Positions 10,724 to 49,087 of a stretch of DNA of 64,000 nucleotides are shown here, piece after piece. Source of the stretch: Escherichia coli (GTDB taxonomy: Bacteria > Pseudomonadota > Gammaproteobacteria > Enterobacterales > Enterobacteriaceae); NCBI RefSeq assembly GCF_016026235.1, contig NZ_CP065613.1, one strand, 5' to 3'. Position numbers and translations under genes: made by a program. Within the stretch, counting starts at the first letter, position 1; every line of letters begins with the position of its first letter. The notes beneath the pieces were generated by a model, which saw nothing but the letters and a program-made list of their open reading frames with translations, made no database searches and was not told the origin of the DNA.

Positions 10724-12036
10724 TGTTTTATCCTTCGAGCGTGAGTGGTGGTGATGCCCGCCATCAGTAACGGCATCAGCAGTAAACCCATAAGTACTGC
10801 GGCGACCGAGAGTAAACTGAACATTCCCGGCCAGCCGTAGCGTTCGATGACCAGCGACAGCGGCCAGCCTGCCAGCGCTGCGCCAAGGTAAGCGAACAGG
10901 CCGAGAAATCCGGTGATTGAACCCGCCGCAGCTTTGTGCCCACACTCCACCGCCGCAAGTCCAATCAGCATTTGTGGGCCAAAGACGAAAAAGCCCACGG
11001 TAAAAAAGCACACTGCCAGCAGAGCGTAGTGATGAACCGGTGCCAGCCACAGTGCGGCGACTGACACCATCAACCCCAACGTGAACAGCAAAATCATTGG
11101 CGCTCGTTGCCCGCTAAACAGCAAATCCGATCCCCATCCGGCAAATAACGCGCCGAGTAAGCCGCCCACTTCAAACAGCATTACCGTGGCGTTGGCGCTG
11201 AGCAGGTTGACACCGTGGCTTTCCGTCAGCCAGATATTGCCCCAGTCGTTAAGCGCAATCCGGATCACATAAACCAGTACATAAGAGACGCCCAGTAGCC
11301 AGATCAGCGGATTTTGCAGCATGGTGGTGCGCAACATTTGCCACAGCCCCATCGGCGGACTTTGTTGTTCCTGACGTAACTCCAGCGGATCGTGACGCCA
11401 GTGACCAACTGTCGGTAATCCCTCTTCCTGGGGCGTGCCTTTGAGTTGTAGCGTTAACCAGATCCCTAATGCCATGCTGATTATCCCCGGTGTCAGCATC
11501 GCGGCCTGCCAGCCCCACCAGTGGGCGGCAAAGGCGCTAATCAGCGGAATAATCGCTCCGCCAATGTTGATCGACATATTCCAGCAGCCCCACCAGAAAC
11601 CGCGCTCATTGCGTGAGTACCAGTGGGTCAGCAAGCGGGCACACGGTGGCCATCCCCAGCCCTGAAAAAAACCGTTCAGTGTCCAGACCACAAGCAGAAG
11701 CGTAAGTGATTCGCCAAAGGCAAACACCACGTTCAATAACCCGGTGGCGAACAAGCCGACGCCCATAAAACCGCGTTGTCCGTGGCTGTCATGCCACAGT
11801 CCGGCGGTAAATTTCGACAATCCGTAGCTGAGATAAAACAGCGAACCCAGCAGGCCAATGTCGCCTTTATCCAGTCCGAGGTCGGTTTGTAGCGCCGGAA
11901 GGACGTAATTCACGCTTTTTCGCGTCAGATAAAATGCGGCGTAGCCAATAATCATGCACATCAGCAATCGCGGACGTAATGTCCGGTAGCATTGATCAAT
12001 TTCTCTCGCTGAACGCGCGTGCATGGTTGTCTCCAT
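10720..12036 (-). CDS. MFS protein, UhpC-like sugar-phosphate sensor/transporter paralog
   Basis: 438 aa; clear similarity to K-12 UhpC recalled from memory (e.g. FFQGWGWPPCARLLTHWYSRNERG versus UhpC FFQGWGSPVCARLLTAWYSRTERG); TGA stop overlaps the afuA ATG. Confidence 0.85.
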   Translation of the reverse strand: METTMHARSAREIDQCYRTLRPRLLMCMIIGYAAFYLTRKSVNYVLPALQTDLGLDKGDIGLLGSLFYLSYGLSKFTAGLWHDSHGQRGFMGVGLFATGLLNVVFAFGESLTLLLVVWTLNGFFQGWGWPPCARLLTHWYSRNERGFWWGCWNMSINIGGAIIPLISAFAAHWWGWQAAMLTPGIISMALGIWLTLQLKGTPQEEGLPTVGHWRHDPLELRQEQQSPPMGLWQMLRTTMLQNPLIWLLGVSYVLVYVIRIALNDWGNIWLTESHGVNLLSANATVMLFEVGGLLGALFAGWGSDLLFSGQRAPMILLFTLGLMVSVAALWLAPVHHYALLAVCFFTVGFFVFGPQMLIGLAAVECGHKAAAGSITGFLGLFAYLGAALAGWPLSLVIERYGWPGMFSLLSVAAVLMGLLLMPLLMAGITTTHARRIKQ

Positions 12037-17996: not shown

Positions 17997-18000
17997 TACG

Positions 18001-18180
18001 AGAGTGGACGGTCCCCTTGAGCGGCGAAAGAACGTTGATATAGATGAAGCGAGTGCGGACGGTCCACTCAAGCGGCGAAAGAACGGTGATATAGATGAAA
18101 CGAGTGCGGACGGTCCCCTCGCCCCCTTGGGGTTAGGGTGAGGGGGAGTTCACTGTACTTTCAATAGGTTAACTCCCCCC
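18001..18180. repeat. two tandem ~49-bp repeat units plus a truncated third copy running into a G/C-rich hairpin (GGGGGAGTT...AACTCCCCC)
   Basis: Direct reading of the tauD-hemB intergenic sequence; unit GAGTG(C)GGACGGTCC...AGCGGCGAAAGAAC(G/T)GTGATATAGATGAA; repeat class not identified. Confidence 0.6.
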
Positions 18181-40711: not shown

Positions 40712-43700
40712 TTATTTCACTGCAAACGTACTTTCCAGTTTGCTGTAGCCCAGGCCGTTGATCTTTTTCACTTTGATCTGCACCGGAATACGCTCTTTCA
40801 TCGCTTCTACGTGGCTAATCACACCGATGGTTTTGCCACTGGCGTTCAGGGCATCCAGCGCATCAAGGGCGGTATCCAGCGTTTCGCTATCCAGCGTGCC
40901 AAAACCTTCATCAAGGAACAGCGAGTCAATACGCGTTTTATGGCTGACCAGATCTGAAAGCGCCAGCGCCAGCGCCAGACTGACGAGGAAACTTTCGCCG
41001 CCAGAAAGGGTACGGGTGTCGCGTACCGCATCTGCCTGCCAGGTATCAACAACCTCGACTTCCAGCGCCTCGCTGGCTTTGCGCTGTAACAGATAGCGCC
41101 CGTGCAGTCGGGTAAGTTGCTGATTAGCGAGATGGACTAAATTATCCAGCGTCAGCCCCTGGCCAAACTTGCGGAATTTATCGCCCTCTTTGGAACCTAT
41201 TAGCGAATTCAGATATCCCCAGTCCTCAACCTGCTGCGTCATTTGAGCAATTTGCTGCAGTAAGGTTTGTTGTTGCTGACGGTTATCTGCATCCTGCTTC
41301 AGCTGCTGGCGAATCTCGCCTTGACTCGTGGTGTTTTCACGCAACTTTTGGTGAGTTTGCGCTAACTCTTGCTGAATCTGCTCCACCGTCACAGTGAGAG
41401 CCAACCCGCCAGGTCGGTGTTGCTGATGCTGTGCCAGCGTTTCTGCTGTCTGAGTGACCAGCGTTTGCGCCTGACGGCGCTGGTTTTCCAGATTCTGCTT
41501 GAGCTGTTCCAGTTGCGTTAGTGTTTGTTCATCCATTAGCGCCGCAAGGAACGCCTGCTGATCGTCAAAGACGCTGGCCTGTAGCGCGGTGTCAAACTGC
41601 GCCTGGGCTTTTTGCAGACTTTGCGCCGCCAGAACGTCCTGTTGCTGTAACGTCTGTTGCTGGCTGTGTAGTGCGAGACATTGTTCATGAACCTGCCGCC
41701 AGTTTTCCAGCACCACAGTTTCTTCGCTGTGCGGGAGTTCATCTCTTTGCGGCAACGTTTCCAGAATCGGCGTCAGCTGCTGAATACGGTTTTGCAGCGC
41801 GGTTAATTCGTTCTGGCGTTGCTGCCAGCTCTGCGCTTCTTGCTGACGTGTCGCCAACCAGCTCTCTTCTTCATCTTCCTGTGGCAATGTCAGTGCATAA
41901 CCCGCCAATGCCGTTAAGAGCTGCTGCTGGCGTTGTTCAATTTGCTGTTGATACTGGATAATTTGCTGATTATGCGCGGCAATCTGCCCTTGTAATTCAT
42001 GTCGTTGGCTGAGTAACCGCAGCTGGCGTTCGTGCTCATCTTGTGCATCCAGCCACGGTTGAATATCGTCCTGTGGCTGCAAGGTGATATTGAGGCTGGC
42101 CGTGACGGCTTGCCATTGTTGAGTAAGTGCTTGCTCATCTTGTCGGAGGCTTTGCGCTTCGTTTTCATCGCGCTGAAGCTGCTTCGTTAATGCATCCAGT
42201 TGCCCGCGCAGCGCCGCACCTTCTTCGCCGAGCTTTTTAACTTCGTTTTCCAGCGCCAGTAATCGAGACTGATTAACACCAGGCTCCAGCGCCTGATACG
42301 CCTCGACCGCCGGGTGGCTGGTGGAACCACAAAGTGGACAAGGCTGACCCGCCTGTAACTGTGCACGTTGAGCTTCCAGCGTTTTGATGCGCGCTTCCTG
42401 CTCGCAAATGGTTTTCACATCGGCAAGTTGCTGCGTCTTTTCTTTATAACGCTGGCGCATTTCGTTAAGTGCGGCGTTACGTTGCGTCTGTTCTTGCGTG
42501 ACATTCTGGATAGCGACCTGTAACTGCGCCAGACGTTTTTGTTGGGGAACAATCTGCCCATGCAGCGCGACCAGGCGCTGACGCAGTGGGCGTTGCTCGG
42601 CATGTTGCGCCAGGGCGCTAGCAACTTCATCGGCGGTTAACGTCAACGTGATCGCCGCAAGCGTATTAAGTTTTTGCTCAGCATGGGTTAACTGTTGCTG
42701 CCATTGCCGCAGATGCTCGCGATCGCTGGTTTGTTGGGAGAACTGCGCACGCCAACCCGCCAGTTCGTTGTTCCACTGACGGAAGCGGTCGTGTTCCTGT
42801 AACCAGGTATTCAGGCTTTGTTGCTGCTGCTGTAATTCTGCTGACTGCTTCGCCGCGTGGTGGCGAATGCTCGCGCGAAGCGCCATTGTGCTCTGTAAGC
42901 GAGTATTTACTTCTTCAATCTGCTGGCGAGTATGCGCCAGCGCCGCGCTGTGTTCTGCGATGCGTTCCCAGTGCGGACGAAGATTTCGTGCCGGTTGTGC
43001 CAGACTGAGCGCCGCCAGTTGAGGTTGCGCTTTTTCTTCTTCGGCTAACGCCTGTTGCAAGGCCTGCTGACGGCGGCTGGCTTCTTGCTGCAATTCGTCC
43101 AGACGCGTTAACCAGTTTAGTGATTGTTGTTCTTGCTGCTGCGCGGTAAGTAACTGTTTTTCTTCGTCAGTAAGTACCTGCAAACTCGCTGTCAGCGATT
43201 GCACTTGTTCCGGCGTGAGCAACGCGACGCCGCTGGCCTGCGCTTGCAGCTTCTCCAGCTCTGTGCGGGCCGATTTGTGCTGCTCAAAAACCATCGCCGA
43301 GATTTGCCCGTAGATTTCAGTGCCGGTTAACTCCTCGAGCAATTCCGCGCGTTCTTTGGGTTTGGCATTCAGGAAGGCAGCAAATTGCCCCTGCGAAAGC
43401 AGCATCGAACGGGTGAAGCGCCCGTAATCCAGCCCGGTTAACGTCGCTGTCAGTTCCAGCTTATCTTTCACTTTGTCGGCGAGAATTTTGCCGTCGGCGC
43501 AGCGCGCCAGCTCTACGCGTGGCACCTGCAAATTACCGTCGGGTTGGTTACGCGCCCGATTCTGGCTCCAGAATGCACGGTACGCTTCACCTTTCACTTC
43601 AAACTCCACCTCCGCCAGACATTCGGCGGTATCGCGGGTCATGAGATCATTTTGCGATTGTGAAACGTTAGAGAGACGCGGAGTTTCGTGATACAGCGCC

Positions 43701-45243: not shown

Positions 45244-45933
45244 ATGGCGAGACGTATTCTGGTCGTAGAAGATGAAGCTCCAATTCGCGAAATGGTCTGC
45301 TTCGTGCTCGAACAAAATGGCTTTCAGCCGGTCGAAGCGGAAGATTATGACAGTGCTGTGAATCAACTGAATGAACCCTGGCCGGATTTAATTCTCCTTG
45401 ACTGGATGTTACCTGGCGGCTCCGGTATCCAGTTCATCAAACACCTCAAGCGCGAGTCGATGACCCGGGATATTCCAGTGGTGATGTTGACCGCCAGAGG
45501 GGAAGAAGAAGATCGCGTGCGCGGCCTTGAAACCGGCGCGGATGACTATATCACCAAGCCGTTTTCGCCGAAGGAGCTGGTGGCGCGAATCAAAGCGGTA
45601 ATGCGCCGTATTTCGCCAATGGCGGTGGAAGAGGTGATTGAGATGCAGGGATTAAGTCTCGACCCGACATCTCACCGAGTGATGGCGGGCGAAGAGCCGC
45701 TGGAGATGGGGCCGACAGAATTTAAACTGCTGCACTTTTTTATGACGCATCCTGAGCGCGTGTACAGCCGCGAGCAGCTGTTAAACCACGTCTGGGGAAC
45801 TAACGTGTATGTGGAAGACCGCACGGTCGATGTCCACATTCGTCGCCTGCGTAAAGCACTGGAGCCCGGCGGGCATGACCGCATGGTGCAGACCGTGCGC
45901 GGTACAGGATATCGTTTTTCAACCCGCTTTTAA
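45244..45933 (+). CDS. phoB: phosphate regulon response regulator
   Basis: 229 aa; OmpR-family receiver and winged-helix domains. Confidence 0.95.
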
Positions 45934-45990: not shown

Positions 45991-47286
45991 GTGCTGGAAC
46001 GGCTGTCGTGGAAAAGGCTGGTGCTGGAGCTGCTACTTTGCTGCCTCCCGGCTTTCATCCTGGGTGCATTTTTTGGTTACCTGCCCTGGTTTTTGCTGGC
46101 ATCGGTAACGGGACTGCTTATCTGGCATTTCTGGAATTTATTGCGCCTTTCATGGTGGCTGTGGGTGGATCGTAGTATGACCCCGCCACCGGGGCGTGGT
46201 AGCTGGGAACCGCTACTATACGGCTTACACCAGATGCAGCTGCGAAATAAAAAACGCCGCCGTGAACTGGGCAATCTGATTAAACGCTTTCGTAGCGGCG
46301 CGGAGTCGCTACCCGACGCAGTGGTGCTGACCACGGAAGAGGGCGGTATTTTCTGGTGTAACGGTCTGGCGCAACAGATTCTTGGTTTGCGCTGGCCGGA
46401 AGATAATGGGCAGAACATCCTTAACCTGCTGCGTTACCCGGAGTTTACGCAATATCTGAAAACGCGTGATTTTTCTCGCCCGCTCAATCTGGTGCTCAAC
46501 ACCGGGCGGCATCTGGAAATTCGTGTCATGCCTTATACCCACAAACAGTTGCTGATGGTGGCGCGTGATGTCACGCAAATGCATCAACTGGAAGGGGCGC
46601 GGCGTAACTTTTTTGCCAACGTGAGCCATGAGTTACGTACGCCATTGACCGTGTTACAGGGTTACCTGGAGATGATGGATGAGCAACCCCTGGAGGGGGC
46701 TGTACGTGAAAAAGCGTTGCACACCATGCGCGAGCAGACCCAGCGGATGGAAGGGCTGGTGAAGCAATTGCTGACGCTGTCGAAAATAGAAGCCGCACCG
46801 ACGCATTTGCTCAATGAAAAGGTTGATGTGCCGATGATGCTGCGCGTTGTTGAGCGTGAGGCTCAGACTCTGAGTCAGAAAAAACAGACATTTACCTTTG
46901 AGATAGATAGCGGCCTCAAGGTGTCTGGCAACGAAGATCAGCTACGCAGTGCGATTTCGAACCTGGTCTATAACGCCGTGAATCATACGCCGGAAGGCAC
47001 GCATATCACCGTACGCTGGCAGCGAGTGCCGCACGGTGCCGAATTTAGCGTTGAAGATAACGGACCGGGCATTGCAGCGGAGCATATTCCGCGCCTGACC
47101 GAGCGTTTTTATCGCGTTGATAAAGCGCGTTCCCGGCAAACCGGCGGTAGCGGATTAGGGTTAGCGATCGTGAAACATGCTGTGAATCATCACGAAAGTC
47201 GCCTGAATATTGAGAGTACAGTAGGAAAAGGAACACGTTTCAGTTTTGTTATCCCGGAACGTTTAATTGCCAAAAACAGCGATTAA
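45991..47286 (+). CDS. phoR: phosphate regulon sensor histidine kinase
   Basis: 431 aa; H-box [11 protein letters not shown], HATPase motifs. Confidence 0.95.
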
Positions 47287-47310
47287 TCCGCCTTTGTCAT
47301 CTTTTATTGC

Positions 47311-47340
47311 CATAAGCCAGCCGATGCTGGCTTATTTTCT
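47311..47340 (+). terminator. putative terminator after phoR
   Basis: Stem ATAAGCCAGC / GCTGGCTTAT with 4-nt loop, followed by a T-rich tract. Confidence 0.5.
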
Positions 47341-47692
47341 TTGCAGTCAAAATACGGGCGTTAGATTTTACAACGGTTGGTGATTTTTTGTTCGCATGAT
47401 TAGCCATGTCTTTTTCACGGAAATAGTGTTTTATACTGGTTGGTGATTTCTTATCGCTATATACCTCTGGTTTTTAGATCCCTCCTTGCTTTAAAACGTT
47501 ATAAGCGTTTAAATTGCGCTTCAGGTGCTGTCATACTGACTGCATTAACGCGGTAAATCGAAAAACTATTCTTCGCCGCGCCTGGTTGGGAGTATTTCCC
47601 GCTAAAATTGTTTAAATATACCGCTGTATCATCCCCAGGGATTGGCACAAAAATTTAACGTTACAACACCACATCCACAGGCAGTATGATTT

Positions 47693-49012
47693 ATGACCCA
47701 TCAATTAAGATCGCGCGATATCATCGCTCTGGGCTTTATGACATTTGCGTTGTTCGTCGGCGCAGGTAACATTATTTTCCCTCCAATGGTCGGCTTGCAG
47801 GCAGGCGAACACGTCTGGACTGCGGCATTCGGCTTCCTCATTACTGCCGTTGGCCTGCCGGTATTAACGGTAGTGGCGCTGGCAAAAGTTGGCGGCGGTG
47901 TTGACAGCCTCAGCACGCCAATCGGTAAAGTCGCTGGCGTGCTGCTGGCAACGGTTTGTTACCTGGCGGTGGGGCCGCTTTTCGCTACGCCGCGTACAGC
48001 TACCGTTTCCTTTGAAGTGGGGATTGCGCCGCTGACTGGTGATTCCGCGCTGCCGCTGTTTATCTACAGCCTGGTCTATTTCGCTATCGTTATTCTGGTT
48101 TCGCTCTATCCGGGCAAGCTGCTGGATACCGTGGGCAACTTCCTTGCGCCGCTGAAAATTATCGCGCTGGTCATCCTGTCTGTTGCCGCGATTGTCTGGC
48201 CGGCGGGTTCTATCAGCACGGCGACTGAGGCTTATCAAAACGCTGCGTTTTCTAACGGCTTCGTTAACGGCTATCTGACCATGGATACGCTGGGCGCAAT
48301 GGTGTTTGGTATCGTTATTGTTAACGCGGCGCGTTCTCGTGGCGTTACCGAAGCGCGTCTGCTGACCCGTTATACCGTCTGGGCTGGCCTGATGGCGGGT
48401 GTTGGTCTGACTCTGCTGTACCTGGCGCTGTTCCGTCTGGGTTCAGACAGCGCGTCGCTGGTCGATCAGTCTACAAACGGCGCTGCTATTCTGCATGCTT
48501 ACGTTCAGCACACCTTTGGCGGCGGCGGTAGCTTCCTGCTGGCGGCGTTAATCTTCATCGCCTGCCTGGTAACGGCAGTTGGCCTGACCTGTGCTTGTGC
48601 AGAATTCTTTGCCCAGTACGTACCGCTCTCTTATCGTACGCTGGTGTTTATCCTCGGCGGCTTCTCGATGGTGGTTTCTAACCTCGGCTTAAGCCAGCTG
48701 ATCCAGATCTCCGTACCGGTGCTGACCGCTATTTATCCGCCGTGTATCGCACTGGTTGTATTAAGTTTTACACGCTCATGGTGGCATAATTCGTCCCGCG
48801 TGATTGCTCCGCCGATGTTTATCAGCCTGCTTTTTGGTATTCTCGACGGGATCAAAGCATCTGCATTCAGCGATATCTTACCGTCCTGGGCGCAGCGTTT
48901 ACCGCTGGCCGAACAAGGTCTGGCGTGGTTAATGCCAACAGTGGTGATGGTGGTTCTGGCCATTATCTGGGATCGCGCGGCAGGTCGTCAGGTGACCTCC
49001 AGCGCTCACTAA
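47693..49012 (+). CDS. brnQ: branched-chain amino acid transporter (LIVCS family)
   Basis: 439-aa polytopic ORF. Confidence 0.95.
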
Positions 49013-49087
49013 ATCACTGAACATTTGTTTTAACCACGGGGCTGCGATGCCCCGTGGTTTTTTATTGTGTTGATGGGTTAGGAATTG

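Follow-up and report, generated by a model that had tools for sequence, protein, structure and literature searches.

The two similar direct repeats upstream of brnQ in a 64-kb stretch of Escherichia coli DNA (the whole stretch analysed, hereafter the window) are, with a probability that we put at about 60%, a young and unconstrained likeness within an Lrp-bound region 5' of the single brnQ promoter, and have no function as a pair. The original prediction had read them as possible binding sites for a regulator or as duplicated promoter elements.

A locally unusual direct repeat in the phoR-brnQ spacer

The window carries the gene order phoB-phoR-brnQ-proY, with sbcD on the minus strand (Table 1). 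From the end of phoR to the start of brnQ we measured a spacer of 406 bp, in agreement with the 400-bp intergenic setting given earlier. The spacer, found in 5,424 of 5,426 complete E. coli genomes, matches that of O157:H7 strain PV15-279 at 100% identity; it bears no annotated feature in K-12 MG1655 or in any of the 20 RefSeq E. coli genome records that were listed. The putative phoR terminator at its 5' end was confirmed as a hairpin with a 10-bp stem followed by a T run, the stem showing compensatory changes across genera (ATAAGCCAGC/GCTGGCTTAT, GGGCCAGC/GCTGGCCC and ATGACCAGC/GCTGGTCAT). The stretch from the phoR stop codon to the terminator is replaced in Escherichia sp. MOD1-EC7003 by a REP-like sequence (locus L003:2065-2130; GCCGGATGCGGCGTGAACGCCTTATCC when read on the opposite strand).

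Table 1. Features of the phoB-proY region in window coordinates; negative numbers are distances from the brnQ transcription start site
Feature	Position	Strand	Sequence	Remarks
phoB	45244-45933			
phoR	45991-47286			
phoR intrinsic terminator hairpin	47312-47335	+		10-bp stem, 4-nt loop, then T run
Lrp-consensus-like site 0	47359-47373		CGTTAGATTTTACAA	4 mismatches, E. coli alone
Repeat copy 1	47375-47395	+	GGTTGGTGATTTTTTGTTCGC	21 nt; -148 to -128
Block A	47384-47408		TTTTTTGTTCGCATGATTAGCCATG	25 bp; -139 to -115; overlaps 3' half of copy 1
Lrp-consensus-like site 1	47392-47406		TCGCATGATTAGCCA	4-5 mismatches; centre -124; inside block A
Lrp-consensus-like site 2	47424-47438		TAGTGTTTTATACTG	2 mismatches; centre -92
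Repeat copy 2	47438-47457	+	GGTTGGTGATTTCTTATCGC	20 nt; -85 to -66
Lrp-consensus-like site 3	47455-47469		CGCTATATACCTCTG	5 mismatches in E. coli, 2-3 in most genera; centre -61
brnQ sigma-70 promoter	47486-47514	+		-35 TTGCTT 47486-47491, 17-bp spacer, -10 TTAAAT 47509-47514
brnQ 5' UTR	47523-47692	+		170 nt from mapped start; includes conserved CA-rich 47663-47685
brnQ	47693-49012			
proY	starts at 49085			

Both repeat strings were found at the positions at which they had first been noticed, with a start-to-start distance of 63 bp. The copies have in common an exact 12-nt core, GGTTGGTGATTT, which begins at 47375 and at 47438, and the rest of their sequence aligns with one indel. Toward the 5' side the likeness extends over 24 nt at 83% identity (47366-47389 and 47429-47452).

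An exact direct repeat of 12 nt arose in 0.4% of dinucleotide shuffles of the spacer, and the best gapped self-alignment of the spacer scored 18 as compared with 11.0 ± 1.4 (maximum 14) in 60 shuffles, which corresponds to a z of about 4.9. At least one 12-mer pair within 100 bp was present in 26.5% of shuffled 64-kb windows, so that the repeat is locally significant but only weakly significant window-wide; when one mismatch was allowed, the 12-mer had at least two hits in 6 of 100 shuffles. Thus, the repeat is real and locally unusual, but it is not compelling given the amount of sequence that was read. Two further 12-mer pairs within 100 bp are present in the window, at 11510/11585 and at 42033/42132. 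Other repeats in the window include a REP/BIME-like array (101 nt × 4.4, at 1466-1911) and a tandem repeat (51 nt × 2.4, at 17998-18120).

Several simple identities of the repeats were considered and discarded. Membership of a dispersed repeat family (REP/BIME, ERIC or similar) was rejected because the 12-mer occurs only twice in the 64-kb window, both times in the phoR-brnQ spacer; the 92-nt stretch that bears the repeats occupies one place per E. coli genome. The 97-nt repeat region folds no better than its shuffles (z = -0.01), which rules out a stable or conserved DNA or RNA structure at the repeats, and an Rfam search of positions 47000-48000 at E ≤ 10 returned a noise hit only. Two readings of the 9-nt core GGTTGGTG were dropped by eye: resemblance to Chi (GCTGGTGG), with a match at 6 of 8 positions, and a two-tetrad G-quadruplex, for which the G runs lie 63 nt apart.

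The repeat cores diverge at the synonymous rate

We aligned 80 orthologous loci, one genome per Enterobacteriaceae species (no Salmonella locus was among them), and computed per-column conservation over 68 non-redundant Enterobacteriaceae species. Within Escherichia, where most of this stretch hardly varies, the largest variation falls in the 9-nt core of the two copies; of the four other Escherichia lineages that were compared, three have changes in both cores (E. albertii, with GAATGGTGA and GATTGATGA, and two more). Against E. albertii, each core is 0.22 divergent, as compared with 0.21 at the four-fold sites of brnQ; against Citrobacter, the core value is 0.44 in three of four loci, and that of the four-fold sites is 0.41-0.45. 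The blocks beside the cores differ by 0-0.16 (block A) and by 0-0.11 (the promoter block). Since core divergence equals the four-fold synonymous rate, the shared core behaves as neutral DNA.

Over the 68 species, conservation of copy 2 is at the background level (0.3-0.7 per column), and in copy 1 it is confined to the T run and GTTCGC, both of which lie within block A. Compared in register, the two sites rank in the top 5% for likeness in 7 of 67 species, three of which are Escherichia; outside Escherichia the figure is 4 of 63. In Klebsiella, nothing resembling the repeats was found at the locus. Among the E. coli genomes, 3,329 of 5,423 match the 92-nt stretch of the window exactly, and in K-12, in which copy 1 reads GATTGGTGATTT, only a 10-mer match is left between the copies. 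The original prediction held that poor conservation in orthologous regions would speak against it, and poor conservation is what we found for both copies.

A conserved pair of operators for a regulator was therefore rejected: the cores are neutral, copy 2 is at background and the two sites are unlike each other outside Escherichia. Origin by an ancient 63-bp tandem duplication was also rejected, because the spacing between block A and the promoter is the same in all genera. Moreover, neutral sites are saturated at the family level, so that ancestry cannot explain the identity of the copies at 12 of 12 positions in E. coli.

A younger pair of operators deserves separate consideration. An E. coli-lineage regulator might bind both copies, placed on one face of the helix, and modulate the brnQ promoter by cooperative binding or looping. 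The local significance of the repeat (0.4% of shuffles; z of about 4.9) and its spacing of 63 bp, equal to 6.0 helical turns, are consistent with such an arrangement, and a T>C substitution shared by both copies in about 150 genomes keeps them alike (see below). However, the cores change at the synonymous rate even within Escherichia, both of them differing in E. albertii and two further lineages, and the exact match is broken in K-12 and in many other strains. Furthermore, all four T/C combinations at the substituted position occur, the cores match none of 18 regulator strings beyond chance, and the 12-mer is found nowhere else in the window. We regard this arrangement as quite improbable.

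A single brnQ promoter lies downstream of both copies

In the supplement of Kim et al. (2012; PMC3415461), brnQ has a single start, at 418645 (old K-12 numbering), which is supported by 54 reads and gives a UTR of 170 nt; neither strand has a further listed start between phoB/phoR and proY. The published 51-nt promoter string matches the window exactly at 47473-47523, which places the start at A47523. The promoter hexamers in Table 1 were read from the sequence upstream of this mapped start. The promoter stretch is nearly invariant across the 68 species, and in K. pneumoniae the brnQ start has been mapped at the homologous promoter. A strict sigma-70 scan detected no promoter-like site; it missed the real brnQ promoter because this promoter is too weak for the scan, and the promoter was located from the published start data.

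These data bear on the suggestion that the copies are duplicated promoter elements, meaning a pair of promoters upstream of brnQ or a doubling of its -35/UP elements. The hexamer TATACT (47432-47437), just 5' of copy 2, resembles a -10 element, but it is not accompanied by an acceptable -35 and is not conserved outside Escherichia, and the scan detected no promoter-like site. The 5'-end data, which had been proposed as a check, contain no start beside either copy: the sole mapped start in the spacer is 66-148 bp 3' of the copies. Given this single start and the use of the same promoter in K. pneumoniae, which has no repeats, the probability that the copies are promoter elements is close to nil.

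Several features of the promoter region and the 5' UTR were noted alongside. The spacer of the promoter, TAAAACGTTATAAGCGTTTAAA (47492-47513), is nearly invariant across the family and contains a near-repeat, ACGTTATAA/GCGTTTAAA; it may be an operator that overlaps the promoter. A conserved GATC is present at 47475-47478. The CA-rich stretch CAACACCACATCCACAGGCAGTA (47663-47685), just 5' of the brnQ ATG, is nearly invariant as well. brnQ has been listed as a verified target of GcvB (R1) in Salmonella and as conserved in E. coli (PMC9299463), and the CA-rich stretch is probably where GcvB would pair. The 5' UTR also contains two small hairpins, formed by 47548-47553 with 47576-47581 and by 47588-47591 with 47597-47600, the first of which encloses the conserved loop GGTAAATCGAAAAACTATTCTT. 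About 80% of the cells are paired, and some changes are two-sided (UA 13/CG 5; GC 13/AU 4); RNAalifold did not predict the two hairpins.

With regard to sigma-54, TGGCAC-N5-TTTAA (47643-47658) resembles a -24 element but lacks the -12 GC, and it is not conserved outside Escherichia. A published SELEX peak of the RpoN holoenzyme, at 418832, corresponds to approximately position 47710 of the window. A sigma-54 reading of TGGTGA...TTCGCA in copy 1 was rejected by eye for its wrong GG-to-GC spacing, and the TGGCAC at 47643 better explains the peak.

Predicted Lrp sites flank the repeat cores

We scanned 18 consensus strings for regulators and sigma factors (Lrp, PhoB, CRP, IHF, FNR, ArcA, TyrR, sigma-54, NtrC, ArgR, Fur, PurR, MetJ, CpxR, Fis, GcvA, OmpR and Nac). 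None of the 18 matched the repeat cores beyond chance, and thus the search for known regulator motifs that had been suggested for the repeats gave nothing on the cores. The only lead was the Lrp SELEX consensus (yAGhAwATTwTdCTr, as quoted in PMC5554404), which flanks the cores and, with two mismatches, adjoins copy 2 at 47424-47438 (site 2).

Three Lrp-like sites begin at 47392, 47424 and 47455, with intervals of 32 and 31 bp, or about three helical turns each. Over the 68 species, in which an average position has 8.6 mismatches to the consensus, site 3 has a mean of 2.96 (three or fewer in 74% of species) and site 2 of 3.84; site 1, with a mean of about 4.6, is the weakest of the three. In site 2, the outer T, G ... 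C, T are conserved. All of the near-invariant columns of site 3 agree with the consensus; they read A, T, A and T, C, T, G and are shared by 64-68 of the 68 species. Site 0, which lies 33 bp 5' of site 1, is not one of the positions with few mismatches in the comparison across species. In 1000 permutations of the alignment columns, the best mean was matched in 0.3% (p of about 0.003), and neither two positions with a mean of at most 4.0 nor such a pair 30-33 bp apart was ever seen, although the test is post hoc, as Lrp was one of 18 strings tried, and the consensus is degenerate.

Binding of Lrp, the leucine-responsive protein, to the spacer in vitro has been shown by genomic SELEX, in which a site at 418534 was assigned to the phoR>brnQ spacer with brnQ-proY as the target (Shimada et al. 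2015, Table S1, PMC5320599). The peak corresponds to approximately position 47412 of the window, a point flanked by the two copies and within the predicted set of sites; with array probes 105 bp apart, its resolution is about 100 bp, too coarse to separate the individual sites. A search of the literature for Lrp control of brnQ found nothing specific and no data on Lrp or leucine dependence. Sequence match, phased spacing and in vitro binding are thus all found in this region, and regulation of brnQ by Lrp is predicted, with the exact sites and their role proposed from the sequence. The original prediction of regulator binding sites therefore holds in part: the Lrp peak and the conserved flanking Lrp-like sites support it for the region, but the repeats themselves, whose shared core is the least conserved part, are not those sites.

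The arrangement of the predicted sites suggests how the repeats could have come about. The two copies lie upstream of one sigma-70 brnQ promoter (start at 47523), in a region that binds Lrp and would do so at 47392, 47424 and 47455, with a weaker site, specific to E. coli, at 47359. The shared cores (47375-47391 and 47438-47454) would then fill the spacers between sites 0 and 1 and between sites 2 and 3, and the flanks of the repeat would be the edges of alternate sites: TTTTAYA, on the 5' side, would come from the 3' half of two sites (0 and 2), and the TCGC at the end of the repeat would form the 5' edge of the other two (1 and 3). On this view, the offset of 63 bp is the sum of two site periods, 32 and 31 bp. 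Such a periodic architecture may account for the spacing and for part of the likeness. The identity of the cores at 12 of 12 positions would be a recent feature of the Escherichia lineage that arose by chance, possibly aided by context-driven mutation, and Lrp at the phased sites (-124, -92 and -61) would act on RNA polymerase at the brnQ promoter.

Block A is conserved at the DNA level

Block A was found in 67 of the 80 loci, where it ends 281-302 bp (mostly 284-290 bp) before the brnQ ATG, and it occurs once in the window. Its per-column conservation is mostly 0.8-1.0, and its divergence is 0-0.16 as compared with 0.4-0.5 at four-fold sites. This conservation goes far beyond the needs of an Lrp site, and the block may belong to another factor.

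A small minus-strand protein (47407-47297, MANHANKK...), whose reading frame starts in block A, was weighed as the source of this constraint. Its ATG and first eight codons are kept in many genera. However, the length of the frame varies from 8 to 58 amino acids, Kluyvera, Klebsiella and Raoultella no longer have the start codon, and the conservation ends after codon 8 and shows no codon pattern. In addition, no minus-strand start was mapped at block A in the data of Kim et al. (2012), and neither K-12 nor the 20 listed RefSeq E. coli records have an annotation for this frame. Such a protein is highly improbable, and the variation of the frame in length and in start codon indicates that the constraint on block A acts on the DNA.

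The same T>C substitution occurs in both copies

Positions 47381 and 47444 are the same position of the repeat, and T>C is present at both in about 150 of 5,423 E. coli genomes, strain 042 included (loci L084 and L087-L096), where the joint substitution makes GGTTGGCGATTT in both copies. In the four genomes of the N3 type, these two bases are the only differences from the window in 92 nt. The 042 type (141 genomes) combines them with 47438 G>A, and about five further genomes with 47446 A>G. A C in copy 1 only was found in five genomes and a C in copy 2 only in one or two, so that every T/C combination is represented; the outgroups carry T in both copies. Each copy contains a small imperfect inverted repeat (GTGA...TCGC in copy 1 and GTGAT...ATCGC in copy 2), which the T>C substitution perfects in both cases, giving arms of 4-5 bp; the predicted hairpin energy, 0 kcal/mol in copy 1 and -1.0 kcal/mol in copy 2 before the substitution, falls to -2.8 and -4.3 kcal/mol, respectively, after it.

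The paired substitution is not what pure drift predicts. The candidate causes are coincidence, mutation that is context-driven or templated, copying of short patches, and selection that keeps the sites matched. Since the C/C genomes may be one clade, perhaps only two mutational events took place, and because the cores hold the few unconstrained positions of the stretch, the probability of a coincidence is roughly a few percent, which is not negligible.

Mutation rather than function might keep or renew the likeness of the copies, either through short-patch copying or through recurrent mutation in a shared context (templated by the quasi-palindrome). The prevalence of the joint T>C (4 + 141 + about 5 genomes) over T>C in copy 1 only (5) or copy 2 only (1-2) argues for this explanation, as do the T at both positions in the outgroups and the lower hairpin energy of both copies after the substitution. 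Yet the arms measure only 4-5 bp, and repeats of this length give conversion a very short substrate. The quasi-palindrome hotspots that have been studied have far longer arms. We consider a mutational origin possible but rather unlikely. That the cores are an operator pair of the E. coli lineage kept alike by selection, so that the joint T>C would represent co-evolution of matching sites, appears decidedly improbable. A young likeness of unconstrained sequence, without function as a pair, is the reading that we prefer for the repeats.

Discussion

Several phased Lrp sites are a known property of Lrp-regulated promoters such as ilvIH, pap and gltBDF and of the liv transport operons. The brnQ upstream region resembles them in having 15-bp sites similar to yAGhAwATTwTdCTr, 31-32 bp apart and 5' of a sigma-70 promoter, an amino-acid gene downstream, and a spacer that is bound by Lrp in genomic SELEX. 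It differs from them in that the brnQ sites are predicted, and in that block A (47384-47408) is conserved far more than typical Lrp sites.

Operators of the OmpR/PhoB family, such as the Pho box (CTGTCATAWAWCTGTCAY), also consist of direct repeats 5' of a promoter, and the brnQ locus lies beside phoBR. However, Pho-box repeats are 7 bp long, follow each other with an 11-bp period and abut the -10 element, whereas the brnQ repeats have a 63-bp period and begin at -148 and -85. The best Pho-box match in the spacer has six mismatches and is no better than matches in shuffles.

Quasi-palindromes are known hotspots of templated mutation in E. coli, for example in thyA. As in those cases, a base change at the brnQ repeats perfects an imperfect inverted repeat, and here it does so in both copies; unlike in those cases, the arms are only 4-5 bp long and the pattern is known from population polymorphism alone.

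Published data sets already include the brnQ promoter and the binding of Lrp to the spacer; the repeat contributes no functional element beyond these. The analysis of the repeat yielded three by-products: a base-level proposal for the Lrp positions (-124, -92 and -61) 5' of a gene for a branched-chain amino-acid transporter; a strongly conserved 25-bp block at -139 to -115; and, in the same substitution carried by both copies of a repeat with 63-bp spacing, a natural example for seeking context-driven or templated mutation in population data.
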